From a virus (taxonomy: Duplodnaviria; Heunggongvirae; Uroviricota; Caudoviricetes): DNA of 64,000 nt. Below are positions 6,873-12,795 of this stretch, one piece after another. The notes under the pieces were generated by a model, which was given only the letters and a program-made list of their open reading frames with translations, was not told the origin of the DNA and made no database searches. Each line of letters starts with the position of its first letter. Position 1 is the first letter of the stretch. The position numbers and the translations under genes are program-made. The stretch is from IMG/VR virus record IMGVR_UViG_2671180724_000008. One strand, 5' to 3'.

Positions 6873-7355
6873 ATGGCGGTAGTTGTGAAAGCTGATTTGT
6901 CAAAAATCCCCTCTATTTCAGGAAATAATGGTTATTCACTTCGTTGTGAGGAAGTAAAGATAAACGGTGAGTCGGCATATTGCAGCTACTCCGTTTGCCA
7001 GCACACCATTCTTGCCTTCAAAGAAAACCGTCTTCCTCGAACTTCATTCCAGTCGTGCGCAACCACTATCAAAGCAGGCAAATGCAAGGCGTTAAAAATG
7101 ATGGTTGAAGAGATTCGTAAAGGAGAATCTCTGTATTTCGAAGATATGACCGCGCTCATTAAGGAGGTTGAAGAACGGAATAAACAAGCCAGAACTATAA
7201 AACGAAAACGTGACAGTGTAACGATTAATAGCATGGTTAAGAAGAGCACCACATCACAAACAGCGATCACTGACGTGTATGCGGCGTTGCTTGAAGAAAC
7301 AACAAAAGAAACACATGAGCAAATCGATCAACATATGGAGGCAAAACAACAATGA
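6873..7355 (+). CDS. Hypothetical protein
   Basis: 160-aa ORF; stop overlaps the ligase start. Confidence 0.45.
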   Translation: MAVVVKADLSKIPSISGNNGYSLRCEEVKINGESAYCSYSVCQHTILAFKENRLPRTSFQSCATTIKAGKCKALKMMVEEIRKGESLYFEDMTALIKEVEERNKQARTIKRKRDSVTINSMVKKSTTSQTAITDVYAALLEETTKETHEQIDQHMEAKQQ

Positions 7356-8674
7356 AAAAGTTGATCGCACTTAAGCATAAGCTGGACGAAATGAAAGCTA
7401 TGGGAACCAATGCAAAAAAAGAGGCATTGGCCAACATGGATGACTTCGAGCAAAGCATGGTTTCATTGATGCTCAACCCTTTCATCCGTTTTGGGGTAAA
7501 GAAATACAAAGTGGCAGAGCCGCTTAGTGAGTCCGTCCCAAGTGACGAAAAAGCCATTGATATACTGAATAAGCTGGCCTCTCGCGAGCTGACGGGGAAC
7601 GCAGCAATAGCTGCTGTTGAGTCTATCGTGGCGTCAATGTGCGCCGATGGGCAGGACGTGTTCCGTCGTTTCCTCTTAAAAGATCCGAAAGCTGGCGTTG
7701 GGATTAGCCTATGCAACAAGGTTTTTGAAAATCCCATTCCGAAATTCGAGGTGCAGCTGGCGTCACCGTATAAAGAAAAAGGCGACAAATACCCCTTCAA
7801 GCCAAATCCTAAAGCAAAATGGCCGATGATTGGCAGCCTTAAGCTCGATGGTTTGCGAGTAATTTGCGAGGTTATTGTTGACGAGGAAGAGGTGAACTTC
7901 CTTTCTCGTACTGGTAATCCAATCACGTCTCTCGATCACCTAAAGCCAGCCATGCTCGAATTAGGCAAACTTTCAGGCCACAAACACATCTTCTTCGATG
8001 GTGAAGGAACAGCCGGTTCATTTAACAAGTCCGTATCTGCATTGCGCAAAAAGAACGTGCAGGCAATTGGCGCTATTTATCATGTTTTCGACTTCTTCCT
8101 ACCGGAATGGCGGGCACAGGCTAAATCCAAAGAGTATGCAAAGACAGGTATGAAGCTGAAAGAGCGCCTGGCTATTCTCGTGGCGTTGTTCAAAAACGAT
8201 CGCAGTGAAGACTACGCGCAAGACATTCACCTACATCCGTTCTACATCATCCATAGCCACGAAGACTTCATCGAACGCTTCATGAAACGCCTGGACGATA
8301 ACGAAGAAGGGGAGATGGGCAAAGATCCGAACTCTGTTTACGAGTTTAAACGTACCCGCAGCTGGTGGAAGTTAAAAGACGAAGATTCAGAAGATGGTGA
8401 AATTATCGACTTTGAGCCGGGCGACCCGGACTCTGGTTTTGCCAACACACTTGGAAAAATTGTTATTCGTCTTGAAAACGGCGTCATCGTTCGTGCGAGC
8501 GGCATTAAGCATAAATATCTGGACGAGATCTGGAACAACAAAGAGAAGTACCGTGGTCGTATTGTCGAGGTTCATTGTCACGAGAAAACACCGGACGGCA
8601 GCTTACGCCACCCACGACTGAAATGGCCGCGTTGCTTACGCGATACAGAAGATCGAATCGGAGATAAAGAATGA
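7352..8674 (+). CDS. ATP-dependent DNA ligase
   Basis: Adenylation motif I KLDGLR and WWKLK-type motif V. Confidence 0.8.
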   Translation: MKKLIALKHKLDEMKAMGTNAKKEALANMDDFEQSMVSLMLNPFIRFGVKKYKVAEPLSESVPSDEKAIDILNKLASRELTGNAAIAAVESIVASMCADGQDVFRRFLLKDPKAGVGISLCNKVFENPIPKFEVQLASPYKEKGDKYPFKPNPKAKWPMIGSLKLDGLRVICEVIVDEEEVNFLSRTGNPITSLDHLKPAMLELGKLSGHKHIFFDGEGTAGSFNKSVSALRKKNVQAIGAIYHVFDFFLPEWRAQAKSKEYAKTGMKLKERLAILVALFKNDRSEDYAQDIHLHPFYIIHSHEDFIERFMKRLDDNEEGEMGKDPNSVYEFKRTRSWWKLKDEDSEDGEIIDFEPGDPDSGFANTLGKIVIRLENGVIVRASGIKHKYLDEIWNNKEKYRGRIVEVHCHEKTPDGSLRHPRLKWPRCLRDTEDRIGDKE

Positions 8675-8850
8675 TGCTCGGCTGGATGATTGCATTTTTA
8701 GCGGTTGGTTTTTTAATCGGTATTGTGGTGATGTCCAGTTGCATCAATGACTACATTAAAAGCGGTGTTATAGAACGACGCGGTCGTATTTATCGCATTG
8801 TAGAAATAACCCACACAGTGAAGGAGATTAAGGATGATCGTATTAAGTAA
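8671..8850 (+). CDS. Small membrane protein (59 aa; below track cutoff)
   Basis: ATG overlaps ligase stop; hydrophobic helix MLGWMIAFLAVGFLIGIVV; C-terminal RRGRIYRIVE shared with next small protein. Confidence 0.4.
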   Translation: MMLGWMIAFLAVGFLIGIVVMSSCINDYIKSGVIERRGRIYRIVEITHTVKEIKDDRIK

Positions 8851-9049
8851 GCGGGAGAAGGAAACGCTTCATGAAATCAGTAAGTGGCCGGAGTTCCCTG
8901 AGTACTGGAAGCCTAAAACGCGGGCTAAGTTAGAGCGGTTAGGGTTGGTTGCAAACGTTTCTGAAACGTGGTGTTCGGCCAACTACCAGTTAACTGATAA
9001 AGGGAAAGTATTGCTACAGCAATTAGTAGAATCAGGAGCGTTCAAATGA
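8834..9049 (+). CDS. Small hypothetical protein
   Basis: 71-aa ORF in a chain of overlapping small genes. Confidence 0.4.
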   Translation: MIVLSKREKETLHEISKWPEFPEYWKPKTRAKLERLGLVANVSETWCSANYQLTDKGKVLLQQLVESGAFK

Positions 9050-9198
9050 TTCCATACATCTCATTAGCTTTTATGGGTGGCTTCCTTATTGGCTTCGGCA
9101 TCTGTCGTGATTTAATTAAGCAGGAACTTAAAACCAAAACACTGTGCATCGGAAAGCGTGTGTATCGGGTAGTTCATGAAACAAAGGTGAAAAAATGA
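9046..9198 (+). CDS. Small membrane protein (50 aa; below track cutoff)
   Basis: Hydrophobic helix plus GKRVYRVVHE motif resembling the 8671 ORF. Confidence 0.35.
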   Translation: MIPYISLAFMGGFLIGFGICRDLIKQELKTKTLCIGKRVYRVVHETKVKK

Positions 9199-9485
9199 GC
9201 AATTTAACTTCTTGGGAATGGTGGTTGGCCACCTATTTCTTAGCGGCCGGAGTCGCATTCGCCTTTTACGTAGGTCAGTTAGTCGTAAAACTGTTGCTGA
9301 TTAAATTTGCTAGTCATAAACGTATCGATGATGGTCTGTGGCGTCTTGGCACCCTGGTGGAAACTCGCTACGGGCAACTTAAGGAGAACGAAACCATTAC
9401 TATCCAAGCGAAACGATTCACTGCCACCATCACAAGAACACCTAGTCGTAGAGTGGCATTGATCAAAAAAGTCACAACCGAATAA
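9195..9485 (+). CDS. Small membrane protein
   Basis: N-terminal TM helix WWLATYFLAAGVAFAFYVGQLVV. Confidence 0.45.
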   Translation: MSNLTSWEWWLATYFLAAGVAFAFYVGQLVVKLLLIKFASHKRIDDGLWRLGTLVETRYGQLKENETITIQAKRFTATITRTPSRRVALIKKVTTE

Positions 9486-9494
9486 AAACATATT

Positions 9495-9516
9495 GATAAG
9501 TATTTACTTACTTATC
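9495..9516. promoter_or_regulatory. Copy of palindrome family GATAAGTAtttacttaCTTATC followed by TTTT
   Basis: Perfect 8-bp AT-rich arms. Confidence 0.4.
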
Positions 9517-9875
9517 TTTTGTGTATAAGATGACTTTGTTTTCGTTGAGACGCGACTGTTTGAACTTAAATACAAGTGCAAACGAAGAAGTCTATCTGGC
9601 AGTAGCCTAATAAGCCAAACACCAGCGAGGTCAGTTTCCAGCCTCGTTACCGAAATGGGACACACTGAGCGAGTGTGATTGCAGAACGCAGGAGGGAACA
9701 TTCATGTTCCCTCCGATGAAGTAACAGAATGGGCGGTTGGTATATTTTCAACTCCATATGACTCCCGGATTCTTAGCCACTGACCGCCCATCCTGTTACG
9801 TCATTTTGTTCAATTATGTCGTTTATACTGGGTTAAAAAGCGGCGACGTAGCCCGGCTGGTATGGTTAGCCAGCA

Positions 9876-9997
9876 CACAACGTTGAGGCCATTACATTTT
9901 TATCAATTCTAAGGTTCTATTCACAGAGATACCGGCGAGCGTTGATATGTAACATGTTGGGCAAACATTCAATCGGAGTAGTGGCCTCAACGTTGTG
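9876..9997. repeat. Stem-enclosed element: 16-bp inverted repeat CACAACGTTGAGGCCA / TGGCCTCAACGTTGTG around about 90 nt
   Basis: Perfect long-range inverted repeat; stem related to elements at 10519 and 11268. Confidence 0.55.
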
Positions 9998-10263
9998 AAG
10001 ACGGGATTGTTGTGTAGGTTTAACCACTGTTGCCATTGGTGCCTGTTTTCACAACAAATGATTCCATACATCACATTGTATAAATTACAAAGTAGGTGCT
10101 GTCCTCAGAAACATCATCTACTTAAAGATTTTGCCTTCTACTATTGAGCGAAGTCGAAAGCGTCTGGCACTAACGAAAAGTGCAAGTAGCGGTGCGTTTC
10201 CTGGCAGAAACTAAACCGTCGCGATTGGCACTGTTGAGTAATAAATACTGGCAGTGCTGAATT

Positions 10264-10339
10264 GATGGTGTAGCTCAGCGGTAGAGCAGTTGGCTGTTAA
10301 CCAACTGGTCGGTGGTTCGAATCCACCCACCATCGCCAA
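10264..10339 (+). tRNA. tRNA-Asn (anticodon GUU)
   Basis: Cloverleaf by hand: acceptor GATGGTG/CACCATC, anticodon stem GTTGG/CCAAC with loop CTGTTAA, T-arm GGTGG-TTCGAAT-CCACC, 3' CCA. Confidence 0.8.
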
Positions 10340-10343
10340 TTTA

Positions 10344-10430
10344 GGGGAGTTAGTCCGTAGAGGTAGCGGTGTAGACTGTAAATCTACTGTCATTGCGACT
10401 CGGGTGGTTCGACTCCATCACTCCCCACCA
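10344..10430 (+). tRNA. tRNA-Tyr (anticodon GUA), long variable arm
   Basis: Acceptor GGGGAGT/ACTCCCC, anticodon stem GTAGA/TCTAC with loop CTGTAAA, T-loop TTCGACT, 3' CCA. Confidence 0.7.
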
Positions 10431-10434
10431 AATT

Positions 10435-10510
10435 GCCGGTTTAGCTCAGTTGGTAGAGCGCCTGCCTTGTAAGCAGGATGTCAGCGGTTCGTGTCCGTTA
10501 ACCGGCACCA
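10435..10510 (+). tRNA. tRNA-Thr (anticodon UGU)
   Basis: Acceptor GCCGGTT/AACCGGC, D-arm GCTC-AGTTGGTA-GAGC, anticodon loop CTTGTAA, T-arm AGCGG-TTCGTGT-CCGTT, 3' CCA. Confidence 0.8.
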
Positions 10511-10518
10511 ACATAATA

Positions 10519-10598
10519 TTGAGAACATTGGCGTAACGGGGTCATATCCCAATCTATGAATAAATGTTACGTTGCCGCGTGACAACCAGTGTTCTCAA
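10519..10598. repeat. Stem-enclosed element (TTGAGAACATTGG / CCAGTGTTCTCAA) with nested CGTAAC/GTTACG stem
   Basis: 13-bp inverted repeat; same CACAnnGTTGAG stem family in inverted orientation. Confidence 0.5.
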
Positions 10599-11178
10599 CA
10601 TTGTGGTGAATGCACAGGCTGATGTGCCGCAACTACAGTAGTGCGCGCTTTGCGGGGCTTGCTACAACCCTGTGTCGGAGATCAGCGCCGACCATCACAA
10701 TTTGGCTCTCTTGCAACAGCATAACGCTGAAATATGTCCAACCTGGTGCGGCCTGTTCACCCGCCGTTAGCTCCACGAAACGGAGCGCACAACAGATAAG
10801 AGAACTTCCCATATGGGGCTTGGCTTAAATGCATCGAGTTCTCTTATCGCTGTGTCACAGACAAATTTCCGACAGCCCTGTTTATCATCGGACGCAACCT
10901 AAAAGGTCGAGGCAAAGCCAGGTAATAGCGGAGGGAGTGACACAGCACACAACAGGTAAGAGCATTTGTAGAGTTCGACTCTCTACCGTGGGCTTTTTCC
11001 CGCGATGCGAGCCATAAATGCTCTTTCCGTTGTGGTGGATTCGCAGACTGATGCGATAGCTTTCTTGGATGTTAGGGAAATGCGGCCGCAAATCTTCCCT
11101 TTCGCGAGCGGTGATCGTCCGTAGTCCTAATTGGCTGCACCGTATGCCGGAGATTCAGTACCGGCCACCACAACGGCC

Positions 11179-11265
11179 GGAGAGTAGGGAGCATGGTGCT
11201 CAAGCGGTCTTGAAAACCGTCCCATTGTGCAAACGATGATGGTTCGATTCCATTACTCTCCGCCA
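11179..11265 (+). tRNA. tRNA-Ser (anticodon UGA), long variable arm
   Basis: Acceptor GGAGAGT/ACTCTCC, anticodon stem-loop GGTCTTGAAAACC as in enterobacterial tRNA-Ser(UGA), T-loop TTCGATT, 3' GCCA; D-arm atypical. Confidence 0.65.
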
Positions 11266-11460: not shown

Positions 11461-12795
11461 TCATGCCAAATTATCCAGATTTCTTTTCTTTTTTTCAATT
11501 ATATTTCTCGCGCCAGAAAAAATTTTACTCAAAATAATTGATTTGCTTGCTCTATTATTAAGATGTAACAACGCGCTATAAAATACATAGTTATCTATTT
11601 TACTATTTAAAGTATTCCCAAGCTTCCCGTTATATGTGCTATTAATAGTATTAAAATATACATGTTCAGGACCTATATTACAAATACCCCTATCAACTCG
11701 CTTTAAATAATGTTTAACTAAAGAAATAGCATCTTCCTTATCATTAATAACATAAAGTCCTGAGCGTTTACCTAGCTTGCTGTCCGAGAATAATTTATAA
11801 CCAACAAGTTCATTTAACGTATTATCCACTTTTGTCAACTCTTTGTTGGCAATCTCCAAATAATACTCAATCTCTTTCTCCATATTACTTATTAAAGAGT
11901 TAAATTCTGCTCGTAACAAATCACCACCAGGTGATTTATAACTCCATAAAATTGAATTGGTAATACGTACTACGTCAGATACTTCTGGTTTCTCTGAATA
12001 GTTTTTGTATCTAGTGCAAATAATGCTGTGCTTTATATATTCTCTAACTAATGATCGATAATCCCTTTCGAAAAGGTTTTTGACATCTAGTCTTCCATTG
12101 CTTGTTGTTATTAAGGTGGTGTTTAAAACTGGGTCGCCTTCAAAAAAATTATATTTATTTAGTAATCGTTTTAGCTTGTGTGAATTATGTGATGTTTCGC
12201 CATAATAATTTATCCCAAAAATAGCAATTATTAGCATAACATCAGGAGTGATGAAATGTCGTAATTGCTCGGCATAAACTTTTTTATCTTCGATTTTCGA
12301 AGATGGAGAGTAAAAACCTTTGTCTATATATTCTAATATTGAAACAATATTACTAACATAACGTATAAAAACTTGATTCATTACAACGGAATCATAAACC
12401 TGATGCAAATAATCTACTCTCAAGTTGTTTTTTATTTTTTCCCCTGTACTAGATGATAACTCTTCTTTTACCTGCCCAAGTAGCTTTTCGTGGTGCTCCA
12501 GCAATGTTTTAAACCATTGTTCAAATGATGATTTTCTTGCCTCAGTTAATGAATCTGATGTTATCTGGACAGCTTTCATAGCTGCTTTCGCACTTTTCTT
12601 TGCTTCATAAGCGTTCCATGCTGAAGCACAAAAAGCTGCCGCCGTGATGCAACTGGTAAAAATAGAAATCCTATCTGCAACATTCAAGCTCCAGAACCAA
12701 TCAGACGATGAAATCAAAACCACAGATATTACGGGAACAATGAAAATCAAAACAGGCATGTATGTACTCGCTCTAATAGTTATTAGTCGAGGCAA
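11461..12795 (-). CDS. AT-rich membrane-anchored protein of unknown function; candidate superinfection-exclusion, abortive-infection or defence gene
   Basis: Gene visibly much more AT-rich than neighbours; two N-terminal TM helices then about 380-aa soluble region; own AT-rich promoter region and terminator; opposite strand. Confidence 0.6.
   Translation of the reverse strand: MPRLITIRASTYMPVLIFIVPVISVVLISSSDWFWSLNVADRISIFTSCITAAAFCASAWNAYEAKKSAKAAMKAVQITSDSLTEARKSSFEQWFKTLLEHHEKLLGQVKEELSSSTGEKIKNNLRVDYLHQVYDSVVMNQVFIRYVSNIVSILEYIDKGFYSPSSKIEDKKVYAEQLRHFITPDVMLIIAIFGINYYGETSHNSHKLKRLLNKYNFFEGDPVLNTTLITTSNGRLDVKNLFERDYRSLVREYIKHSIICTRYKNYSEKPEVSDVVRITNSILWSYKSPGGDLLRAEFNSLISNMEKEIEYYLEIANKELTKVDNTLNELVGYKLFSDSKLGKRSGLYVINDKEDAISLVKHYLKRVDRGICNIGPEHVYFNTINSTYNGKLGNTLNSKIDNYVFYSALLHLNNRASKSIILSKIFSGARNIIEKKKRNLDNLA

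Follow-up and report, generated by a model that had tools for sequence, protein, structure and literature searches.

Four overlapping genes behind the DNA ligase gene of SSU5-like phage-plasmids: conservation, relationships and possible membrane functions

Imm and Sp of bacteriophage T4 are small membrane proteins that are expressed early in lytic growth and act in superinfection exclusion. Imm has two transmembrane (TM) helices, Sp acts in the periplasm, and both exclusion genes, imm and sp, sit among replication genes. In Bacillus phage phi29, the early membrane proteins p1 and p16.7 have been proposed to organise replication at the membrane, as a tether of replicating DNA or of the terminal protein (PMC4974454). 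Gp11 of Staphylococcus phage PhiNM1, a 53-aa membrane protein, targets MurG and DivIC (PMC11237401).

The genes analysed here, ORF1 to ORF4, are found in a 64,000-nucleotide stretch of DNA (the window), the whole of which is an SSU5-like phage-plasmid with 98 % identity to Escherichia phage Cyrano. They close a helicase-primase-ligase replication operon, and ORF1, ORF3 and ORF4 are predicted to encode single-pass membrane proteins. Like p1 and p16.7, these three proteins are small, of the early-operon type, encoded with replication genes and predicted to be membrane-anchored, their functional part lying on the cytoplasmic side. However, they share no detectable homology with the phi29 proteins, phi29 has a Gram-positive host and protein-primed replication, and a defined DNA-binding domain is present in p16.7, which is also the larger protein. 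The likeness is one of architecture and context only. ORF1, ORF3 and ORF4 differ from T4 Imm and Sp in having almost no periplasmic part, and searches of PHROGs and Pfam revealed no homology to the T4 proteins. PhiNM1 Gp11, a phage early gene product of about 50 aa, is likewise located in the membrane, where it acts by protein-protein contact (PMC11237401), and similar small phage membrane proteins inhibit host envelope synthesis or division. But Gp11 has two predicted TM helices, whereas ORF1, ORF3 and ORF4 each have one, with the basic cytoplasmic tails most constrained, and there is no homology.

The four genes and their coupling

The features of the locus, numbered from the first letter of the window, are as follows.

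7352..8674, + strand: ATP-dependent DNA ligase, 440 aa, the gene upstream of the chain (PF01068 in relatives)
8660..8663, + strand: GGAG, Shine-Dalgarno (SD) for ORF1, within the ligase 3′ end (GGAG or AGGAG in 59/62 loci)
8671..8850, + strand: ORF1, 59 aa, predicted single-pass membrane peptide, paralog of ORF3 and dispensable (PHROG 4381; RefSeq AplA)
8689..8745, + strand: predicted TM helix of ORF1, residues 7-25, with an invariant G13xxxG17
8785..8802, + strand: tail motif of ORF1, RIYRIV, residues 39-44
8821..8826, + strand: AAGGAG, SD for ORF2, within ORF1
8834..9049, + strand: ORF2, 71 aa, soluble (PHROG 4054)
9034..9038, + strand: AGGAG, SD for ORF3, within ORF2
9046..9198, + strand: ORF3, 50 aa, predicted single-pass membrane peptide (PHROG 6302)
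9049..9105, + strand: predicted TM helix of ORF3, residues 2-20, with G12xxxG16
9157..9174, + strand: tail motif of ORF3, RVYRVV, residues 38-43
9184..9189, + strand: AAGGTG, weak SD for ORF4 (GGAG in SSU5-type relatives)
9195..9485, + strand: ORF4, 96 aa, predicted single-pass membrane protein (PHROG 4507)

A sequence-only reading of this DNA had proposed a chain of four overlapping ORFs, two of them below 60 aa, coupled from the ligase stop onward. The ORFs lie at 8671-8850, 8834-9049, 9046-9198 and 9195-9485 (59, 71, 50 and 96 aa), exactly as proposed where coordinates had been given, and ORF1 and ORF3 are the two below 60 aa. In ORF1 the conserved start probably lies at the second Met (8674).

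The same genes are already catalogued, as PHROG and RefSeq entries and as the annotated hypotheticals SSU5_045-048 and CYRAN_37-39, and none of the matching entries carries a function. ORF1 matched PHROG 4381 over residues 1-59 of 59 (E=7.9e-39) and is 95 % identical to the RefSeq protein 'AplA, after-plasmid-ligase protein' (WP_085949093.1), a name that fits its position directly after the ligase. The remaining three matched end to end, ORF2 to PHROG 4054 (E=4.1e-46), ORF3 to PHROG 6302 (E=1.4e-36) and ORF4 to PHROG 4507 (E=1.8e-58). SSU5-type phage-plasmids are common and are also carriers of resistance genes. The locus was present on plasmids in 234 of 5,426 complete Escherichia coli genomes and in 803 PLSDB plasmids, including Salmonella Typhi pHCM2 and Yersinia pestis pMT1-type replicons, and the order of ORF1-4 is the same in SSU5, pJN2-26, pHCM2 and the Y. 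pestis pMT1-type plasmids.

Conservation was assessed in 85 distinct related loci (denominators 63, 75, 84 and 85 for ORF1 to ORF4, respectively), in most of which the reading frames were conserved. Intact copies numbered 62/63 for ORF1, 74/75 for ORF2, 79/84 for ORF3 and 83/85 for ORF4. Variation in all four frames falls mostly at third codon positions, and the median dN/dS values of 0.17, 0.07, 0.14 and 0.10 (ORF1 to ORF4) point to purifying selection. Conservation is far above chance and indicates that all four genes are genuine.

The genes overlap at all four junctions, and the overlaps are kept across related loci, which agrees with the proposed coupling. The TGA stop of the ligase gene (8672-8674) overlaps the ATG of ORF1 in an ATGA (-4 nt), a geometry kept in 61/62 distinct related loci. 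ORF1 and ORF2 overlap by 17 nt (kept in 61/63), ORF2 and ORF3 by ATGA (-4/-1 across loci; 73/75), and ORF3 and ORF4 by ATGA (-4; 82/84). The -4 overlap has been re-created after both of the natural deletions found, in 12/12 and 6/6 loci. A scan for consensus promoters and terminators found none inside the four-gene chain, and the arrangement indicates that ORF1-4 are co-transcribed and translationally coupled. Since reads for CYRAN_37-39 were mildly above those for the ligase in some conditions in the Cyrano RNA-seq (PMC9928086), a weak internal promoter is possible but unproven.

In LB lysogens of Cyrano, CYRAN_36-39 are at or near the zero-read floor, with log2(FPKM+5) of 2.3-3.0, and the list of genes expressed in lysogeny does not include them (PMC9928086). 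Neither the four genes nor the ligase is expressed in lysogens (PMC9928086), and the genes, therefore, act during lytic development. The same study, on Cyrano in E. coli LF82, reports a 39-fold induction with ciprofloxacin. On the published RNA-seq, a lysogeny-expressed 'moron' or exclusion gene was rejected (PMC9928086).

Three predicted membrane proteins and a soluble protein

The N-terminal hydrophobic segments previously noticed in ORF1, ORF3 and ORF4 were confirmed, with best 19-residue Kyte-Doolittle means of 2.60, 1.84 and 2.00, respectively. In each protein there is no K or R on the N-terminal side of this segment and 9-13 on its C-terminal side, and the net charge of the tail is +3 for ORF1, +7 for ORF3 and +7 for ORF4. 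The predicted topology is N-out/C-in. With this topology, hardly any of ORF1 and ORF3 is periplasmic, and the GxxxG helix of each leads into some 30 residues of basic tail, in which a strand-like R-[IV]-Y-R-[IV]-V is invariant. In ORF4, the predicted TM segment (residues ~10-37) is followed by a predicted juxtamembrane helix (38-62), which is the most conserved part of the protein, and a predicted beta-hairpin (67-80). Its AF2 model, which is of moderate confidence (pLDDT 68), has one long helix (residues 6-61) and the hairpin at 67-80. The ORF3 tail, at 0.79 bits of entropy vs 1.28 bits for the TM helix, and the ORF4 juxtamembrane helix, at 0.96 vs 1.48 bits, place the sequence constraint in the segments predicted to be cytoplasmic, not in the TM helices.

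A motif G(R/K)R-x-YR-x-VE had been reported as common to ORF1 and ORF3. The two do share a motif, but the string as written has a literal match in neither. The true core is R[IV]YR[IV]V, and these are its only two sites in the six-frame translation of the 64-kb window. BLASTP aligned ORF1 and ORF3 with 33 % identity over 45 aa (E=1e-5), and hhalign did so over the full length with a probability of 82-88 % (E=3e-6 to 1e-5). The profile score exceeded all of 200 column shuffles, also where the shuffling was confined to the TM segment and to the tail, and bridging peptides of remote relatives carry GRRVYKVVE. On this evidence ORF1 and ORF3 are paralogs.

The further claim that all three membrane peptides are related holds for ORF1 and ORF3 but was an overclaim for ORF4, which is detectably related to neither. 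No BLASTP alignment was obtained between ORF4 and ORF1 or ORF3, and hhalign probabilities were at most 2 % with the first profiles and at most 1 % with profiles broadened with remote members. A distant similarity of ORF4 to ORF3 in a hand alignment (KR[IV]…[YW]R[VL]…V-ET) needs two insertions, has no hhalign support and was rejected. ORF4 is thus not detectably related to ORF1 or ORF3 in sequence and has only the architecture in common with them.

Searches against Pfam, NCBIfam, PADLOC and PDB sequence profiles gave nothing significant for ORF1, ORF3 or ORF4, and no sequence or fold similarity to a characterised protein was found when Foldseek was included; every Foldseek match of the ORF4 model in the PDB had E>5. 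An exhaustive HMM search recovered only 18 cluster representatives of the ORF4 family among 1.84 billion proteins, and these contain no informative domain apart from recombinant fusions. Many records name ORF4 'C-type natriuretic protein', a propagated misannotation: ORF4 has no Pfam natriuretic-peptide match at E<=1 and is without cysteine. Lipoproteins were also considered and rejected. ORF1 (…VMSSC24) has no K or R before the hydrophobic segment and Cys24 is replaced by Ser in the orthologs P0025 and L010, and in ORF3 position -1 is Ile and the Cys is not conserved.

ORF2 has no strongly hydrophobic segment and is probably a small winged-helix DNA-binding protein, as suggested by profile matches that are all sub-threshold and always on residues ~32-66. 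HTH_45 was matched by 8/9 ORF2 orthologs, the best of them at E=0.0036 and short of the 25.5-bit gathering score, and ORF2 also matched MarR 2rdp (E=0.042) and the Csa3 C-terminus (E=0.0015). The single-sequence AF2 model of ORF2 (pLDDT 54) was unusable.

Evolution of the module

In remote relatives the chain is reduced to the ligase, a single peptide of the ORF3 type and a homolog of ORF4. In the loci of P0117 and P0118, ORF4 homologs that are 31-33 % identical to ORF4, the ligase gene is followed by a 55-aa ORF3-type peptide and then by the ORF4 homolog, with overlapping junctions. Because this is all that the remote relatives have, ORF3 and ORF4 are the ancestral core, and the comparison identifies one ORF3-type peptide plus ORF4 directly after the ligase as the ancestral and most persistent unit. 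Klebsiella variants that have lost most of the ligase together with ORF1 and ORF2 still keep ORF3-ORF4, and, as the pair is kept in these ligase-less variants, it is independent of the ligase.

ORF1 has been precisely deleted in some E. coli lineages. From its distribution it is a lineage-specific, dispensable duplicate, and ORF2, on the same comparison, is a lineage-specific insert. Some plasmids (L011, L012, L074, L086 and L065) have ORF3-ORF4 replaced or disrupted, and ORF4 stands alone in L099. The module is, therefore, accessory and not essential.

Possible functions

The reading that we prefer, tentatively and with considerable doubt, is that ORF1, ORF3 and ORF4 form a lytic-phase membrane anchor that may recruit a cytoplasmic partner, possibly replicating DNA. 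In the mechanism that we infer, the proteins would insert in the inner membrane and associate by small-xxx-small helix packing, and the conserved basic cytoplasmic segments would then hold the partner there. As partner, phage DNA in the course of replication or the replisome would be most plausible, possibly joined by the putative DNA-binding protein encoded by ORF2. Strict stop-start coupling would set the dosage relative to the upstream replication enzymes, and in function the proteins would be a Gram-negative counterpart of phi29 p1 and p16.7. The position of the constraint, given the predicted topology, and the neighbouring helicase, primase and ligase genes are consistent with an anchor. 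Against it stand the negative similarity searches described above, the dispensability of ORF1, the accessory nature of the module and the independence of ORF3-ORF4 from the ligase, as read from the related loci. As T4 imm and sp also lie among replication genes, the operon context cannot discriminate between the hypotheses.

In a more specific form of the anchor, which we consider unlikely, an ORF3-type peptide and ORF4, augmented in the SSU5 group by the duplicate ORF1 and the probable winged-helix ORF2, would be a dedicated inner-membrane attachment device for the lytic, T4-like recombination-dependent replication of enterobacterial phage-plasmids, its stoichiometry set by the obligatory stop-start coupling to the ligase. 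If this were true, the device would be the first replication organiser of the p1/p16.7 kind in Gram-negative tailed phages.

A rather unlikely alternative is host takeover, in which the membrane proteins would bind and inhibit, or redirect, a host machine in or peripheral to the inner membrane during lytic growth. Cell division, peptidoglycan precursor synthesis, a protease or a transporter are candidate targets, on the model of PhiNM1 Gp11, and early small phage membrane proteins that inhibit host growth have precedent (PMC11237401). Small membrane proteins of the early or middle lytic phase that are silent in lysogeny would suit this role, as would conserved small-xxx-small TM motifs able to bind other helices and a module that is accessory and has been lost or replaced in some lineages. 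However, the strongest constraint is in the basic cytoplasmic tails and not in the TM helices, the retention of ORF3 and ORF4 beside the ligase down to 31-33 % ORF4 identity is unusually stable for genes of host takeover, and no similarity to a known inhibitor was found in PHROG, Pfam or NCBIfam.

Lytic-phase superinfection exclusion, in which entry of DNA from secondary phages into the infected or induced cell would be blocked as by T4 Imm and Sp, is quite improbable. These would likewise be small inner-membrane proteins, as predicted, expressed with early or replication genes, T4 imm and sp have the same kind of gene neighbourhood, and the module is accessory and variable. But the predicted periplasmic parts are just 0-9 residues, the conserved parts are cytoplasmic, expression is lacking in the lysogen, when a temperate element would profit most, and there was no PADLOC match.

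Very doubtful is a role in lysis timing, as holin, antiholin or pinholin-like modulators of membrane permeabilisation, even though small, membrane-embedded proteins such as these are what the idea of depolarisation presupposes, and ORF4 has a weak PHROG holin match (phrog_2359) confined to the TM segment. That match is not significant (E=0.027), no muralytic gene adjoins the chain, and each protein is predicted to have a single TM helix, C-in, and a long basic cytoplasmic domain. The closest relative has a complete lysis cassette of holin, endolysin, Rz and Rz1 genes (CYRAN_22-25) about 10 kb upstream of the chain, and holin and spanin were, therefore, rejected as identities. Toxic or depolarising peptides are not favoured, because the constraint lies in the cytoplasmic segments and not in the TM helices. 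The genes do not fit the type I toxin-like peptides (Hok, Ldr, TisB): there was no Pfam or NCBIfam toxin match and no Rfam antisense RNA, the genes sit inside a lytic operon, to which they are translationally coupled, and they are silent in lysogens along with the ligase (PMC9928086).

That the ORFs are chance frames or decaying remnants without function is hardly credible: they are very short, ORF1 and ORF3 often go unannotated and some loci have frameshifts or deletions, but the reading is refuted by the dN/dS of 0.07-0.17 in all four frames, by frames, starts, SD motifs and overlaps kept in ~85 distinct loci and in remote relatives, and by the occurrence of the locus in 803 plasmid records.

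The module does not amount to a new kind of system, and it will be of modest practical use unless the proteins do tether replication. The gain is one of annotation, in that small genes that are routinely missed or mis-named are real, under selection and code for membrane proteins of the lytic phase, with a defined ancestral pair. The three tiny genes and their natural deletion variants also offer a compact, testable entry to the membrane organisation of lytic growth. We found no description in the literature of the ORF1-ORF3 paralogy, the ancestral ORF3 and ORF4 pair or the invariance of the coupling, and searches for 'C-type natriuretic protein' with phage, AplA/after-plasmid-ligase, and tmRNA with SSU5 returned nothing relevant. 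At 9520-9900, a conserved structured RNA, whose tmRNA-like tag reads AN(E/D)xxYLAVA, was noticed a short way 3′ of the four-gene chain.

Four small genes downstream of the ligase

Positions 7300-10300 of the window are 98 % identical to Escherichia phage Cyrano, which is the SSU5-like phage-plasmid pLF82 of E. coli LF82, and 74-79 % identical to Salmonella phage SSU5 and Klebsiella phage pJN2-26. The gene order in Cyrano is helicase, primase, two hypothetical genes, ligase, small genes and tRNAs. ORF calling returned exactly the coordinates that had been proposed for the four small ORFs in the sequence-only reading:

7352-8674, ATP-dependent DNA ligase, 440 aa, directly upstream of ORF1-ORF4
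8671-8850, ORF1, 59 aa
8834-9049, ORF2, 71 aa
9046-9198, ORF3, 50 aa
9195-9485, ORF4, 96 aa

ORF4 is followed by approximately 780 nt without ORFs and then by a tRNA cluster.

The four ORFs are real genes. Each matches its own PHROG over the full length (4381, 4054, 6302 and 4507 for ORF1 to ORF4, respectively; E=1e-36 to 1e-58), function being listed as unknown for all four PHROGs. All four are annotated in SSU5 and pJN2-26. ORF1 is unannotated in Cyrano, and many plasmid records in PLSDB lack ORF1 or ORF3 in their gene tables. The homolog search in related phages that had been suggested as a check found the reading frames conserved in 85 distinct loci from phage, plasmid and IMG/VR collections, with intact-length copies in 62/63 (ORF1), 74/75 (ORF2), 79/84 (ORF3) and 83/85 (ORF4) cases; a few contigs carry single frameshifts. 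In comparisons between clades with 20-35 % protein divergence, the median pairwise Nei-Gojobori dN/dS was 0.17, 0.07, 0.14 and 0.10 for ORF1 to ORF4, and variable sites are mostly third codon positions. The locus is present in 803 PLSDB plasmids, including the Y. pestis pMT1-type and S. Typhi pHCM2 replicons, and among 5,426 complete E. coli genomes it was plasmid-borne in 234 and chromosomal in none.

Genes of this locus are already annotated as SSU5_045-048 and CYRAN_37-39, and no reported function was found for any of the four. ORF1 (95 % identity) has recently been named 'AplA, after-plasmid-ligase protein' in RefSeq; this name is purely positional, and the phrase 'after-plasmid-ligase protein' was not found in a literature search. 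ORF4 is labelled 'C-type natriuretic protein' in SSU5_048 and in many RefSeq proteins. As ORF4 has no natriuretic-peptide Pfam match and no cysteine, this is a spurious annotation that has been propagated. Small membrane proteins from coupled operons are a familiar kind of phage product, and these belong among them. The analysis adds minor points only: ORF1 and ORF3 are paralogs, an ORF3-type peptide and ORF4 represent an ancestral pair, the coupling is close to invariant, natural deletions form a series, and the genes can be assigned to the lytic phase.

Translational coupling and natural variants

The ligase TGA and the ORF1 ATG overlap as ATGA. SSU5-type relatives read CTGATG at this junction, and hence the conserved initiation codon of ORF1 is that of the second Met (8674). 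The ORF2 start lies 17 nt within ORF1, and ATGA overlaps are found at ORF2/ORF3 and ORF3/ORF4. GGAG, AAGGAG, AGGAG and AAGGTG lie 6-13 nt 5' of the ORF1, ORF2, ORF3 and ORF4 starts, respectively. The spacing is -4 for ligase>ORF1 (61/62 loci), -17 for ORF1>ORF2 (61/63), -4 or -1 for ORF2>ORF3 (73/75) and -4 for ORF3>ORF4 (82/84). Loss of ORF1 brings the ligase stop into overlap with the ORF2 start and restores the -4 spacing (12/12 loci); where most of the ligase, ORF1 and ORF2 are missing, the remnant overlaps the ORF3 start, again at -4 (6/6). A sequence scan found no consensus promoter or intrinsic terminator within the ORF1-ORF4 chain. Together, the near-invariant overlaps, the Shine-Dalgarno motifs, the re-created -4 junctions and this negative scan give good support, at the sequence level, to the earlier claim of coupling from the ligase stop onward, and the coupling appears to be obligatory.

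ORF1 and ORF3 are paralogous. They align over the full length in BLASTP (33 % identity over 45 aa, E=1e-5), and hhalign matches the two family profiles along their whole length (probability 82.5 %, E=1e-5), rising to 88 % (E=3e-6) with bridging peptides of remote relatives added. The profile score exceeded 200 of 200 column shuffles, both when all columns were permuted and when each column stayed inside its own segment (TM part or tail). One within-segment shuffle reached 28.5 against the observed 29.3, so the support, though genuine, is modest. The motif said to be shared, G(R/K)R-x-YR-x-VE, fits neither peptide as a regular expression, but a core, R[IV]YR[IV]V, is common to both (ORF1 residue 39, ORF3 residue 38), with no further copy among the 127,996 residues obtained by translating the window in six frames. 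No BLASTP alignment of ORF4 with ORF1 or ORF3 was found, and the hhalign probability was at most 2 % (at most 1 % once remote members had been added to the profiles). The proposed relationship of three membrane peptides is therefore reduced to ORF1 and ORF3.

An exhaustive HMM search of 1.84 billion proteins recovered 18 cluster representatives of the ORF4 family, which is thus a narrow one. The most distant full-length members, P0117 and P0118, are 31-33 % identical to ORF4, and their loci consist of a ligase (440 aa), one 55-aa ORF (MHNMIPYILLGLIGGVLGSAYFIVDMLKQELKTGTVAMGRRVYKVVEVKEFKRNG) and the ORF4 homolog, with overlapping junctions; ORF1 and ORF2 are absent. The 55-aa product shares 48 % identity with ORF3 (E=5e-15) and shows weak similarity to ORF1, and it carries a motif that stands between those of ORF1 and ORF3. 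The ancestral unit is therefore made up of the ligase, an ORF3-type peptide and ORF4, with ORF1 an SSU5-group-specific duplicate and ORF2 a clade-specific insert.

Natural variants are consistent with such a unit. ORF1 is precisely deleted in approximately 13 E. coli-clade loci, between near-identical 16-nt sequences at the ligase/ORF1 (GGAGATAAAGAATGAT, window 8655-8675) and ORF1/ORF2 (GGAGATTAAGGATGAT, 8818-8838) junctions. In approximately six Klebsiella loci (phage-plasmids L013, L014, L090, L092, L093 and L096), ligase residues 1-72 are fused in frame to the last ~12 residues of ORF2, and the 82-aa product is ATGA-coupled to ORF3, with ORF3-ORF4 intact and coupled. As the DNA ligase has been lost there, it is dispensable for these plasmids. 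L099-type plasmids retain ORF4 alone, adjoining a remnant of the ORF3 3' end. In the K. pneumoniae plasmids L012 (1339-1755) and L011 (1396-1638), the ORF3 C-terminus and ORF4 have given way to a foreign gene of 139 aa, truncated in L011, that encodes a hydrophobic segment at its C-terminus, and the ORF1 of L012 has lost its TM helix by internal deletion. The deletions and replacements thus indicate that the module is accessory, not essential; its most persistent parts are ORF4 and then ORF3.

A metagenomic protein of 106 aa, P0098, carries the N-terminal 62 residues of ORF4 fused to another C-terminus with a match to Pfam PF13876 (Phage_gp49_66), and locus L097 has a PF13876 gene as well, a few kb downstream, which suggests recombination within the region.

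Membrane peptides and their possible role

As had been noted from the sequence, ORF1, ORF3 and ORF4 each have one N-terminal hydrophobic helix, a single strongly hydrophobic segment at residues 7-25, 2-20 and ~10-37, respectively. No Lys or Arg precedes it in any of the three and 9, 10 and 13 follow it, so the positive-inside rule predicts single-pass proteins oriented N-out/C-in, with a periplasmic part of 0-9 residues. The net charge of the tails is +3, +7 and +7. GxxxG is conserved in the helices of ORF1 (G13/G17) and ORF3 (G12/G16), and in ORF4 G19 and G27 are invariant, with A23 between them. The strongest constraint lies outside the membrane, in the predicted cytoplasmic parts: mean column entropy in ORF3 is 0.79 bits for the tail versus 1.28 bits for the TM helix, and in ORF4 the juxtamembrane segment 38-62 (FAS-KRIDD-LWRLG-L-E--YG) has 0.96 versus 1.48 bits. 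An AF2 model of ORF4 from the family alignment has a long helix (6-61), a hairpin (67-80) and a disordered end (mean pLDDT 68; 86-90 in the TM segment).

ORF2 has no hydrophobic segment. Its residues ~32-66 gave only sub-threshold matches, all to winged-helix domains (HTH_45 in 8/9 orthologs, MarR 2rdp, HxlR-like PA1607 and the Csa3 C-terminus), and it is annotated in Cyrano as a putative transcriptional regulator.

Published LF82 transcriptomes (PMC9928086, S1 Table) are given as log2(FPKM+5), so that 2.32 represents zero reads. In overnight LB, the values were 2.45/2.66 for CYRAN_36 (ligase), 2.97/2.32 for CYRAN_37 (ORF2), 2.32/2.32 for CYRAN_38 (ORF3) and 2.83/3.00 for CYRAN_39 (ORF4), compared with 7.15/7.32 for CYRAN_40. 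CYRAN_36-39 are not on the published list of lysogeny-expressed 'morons' and reach only ~4-6 in other conditions (PMC9928086), to which spontaneous induction may contribute. The near-floor values in lysogens place the ligase and the small genes in the lytic programme.

Our preferred reading, which we hold tentatively, is that the membrane proteins would pack through small-xxx-small helices to form an inner-membrane anchor, and that their conserved basic cytoplasmic segments would recruit a cytoplasmic partner. Because the genes lie in a replication operon and a winged-helix-like protein is encoded alongside them, the replisome or replicating phage DNA would be the most plausible partner. The anchor is preferred because constraint is centred on the cytoplasm and the pair is deeply conserved beside the ligase. 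A similar mode of working has been proposed for the small membrane proteins p1/p16.7 of phi29, with which there is no homology (PMC4974454). Takeover of the host envelope or host physiology, as exemplified by PhiNM1 Gp11 (PMC11237401), is rather less probable. Lytic timing argues against prophage-expressed exclusion or conversion functions. Superinfection exclusion during the lytic phase, of the type represented by T4 Imm and Sp, is unlikely. Cyrano has a complete holin, endolysin, Rz and Rz1 cassette ~10 kb upstream of the small genes, and a role as lysis-timing factors is very improbable. That the four genes have no function is hardly credible.

The region downstream of ORF4

The stretch 3' of ORF4 contains no annotated genes and is strongly conserved, more widely than the small ORFs. 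Positions 9520-9900 fold as a structured RNA for which 108 pairs are predicted; compensatory changes occur at 10 of these. Within it, GCAAACGAAGAAGTCTATCTGGCAGTAGCCTAATAA reads ANEEVYLAVA-stop-stop, resembling the E. coli tmRNA tag ANDENYALAA; this tmRNA-like resume and tag frame (GCAAACGAA...GCCTAATAA) lies at ~9578-9613. Synonymous variants occur in the frame, which 93 related loci preserve as AN(D/E)xxYLAVA-stop. Rfam gave only sub-threshold tmRNA matches (14-23 bits), exactly over the tag region, ARAGORN found no tmRNA or tRNA-like domain, and no literature linking tmRNA with SSU5, pHCM2 or phage-plasmids was found. One possibility for this RNA is a tmRNA-derived element, either degenerate or novel; another is an unrelated ncRNA with a tag region that is paired and only looks like a coding frame. 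An inverted repeat of long range (ACAACGTTGAGGCC...GGCCTCAACGTTGT, 9878-9893 and 9982-9998) is conserved in SSU5, pJN2-26 and L099, and a perfect hairpin (GGAGGGAACAT/ATGTTCCCTCC, 9690-9713) has compensatory replacements in relatives. Both probably belong to this same RNA.

The tRNA cluster of the window (10264-11265) is unlike that of Cyrano: there is an additional tRNA-Tyr (10344-10430), and a gap of ~670 nt separates tRNA-Thr from tRNA-Ser, whereas Asn, Thr and Ser are contiguous in Cyrano. Beyond it, a 444-aa ORF with a hydrophobic N-terminus (11461-12795, minus strand), a candidate for accessory or defence-type cargo, occupies a position where Cyrano has different small genes (CYRAN_41-43).
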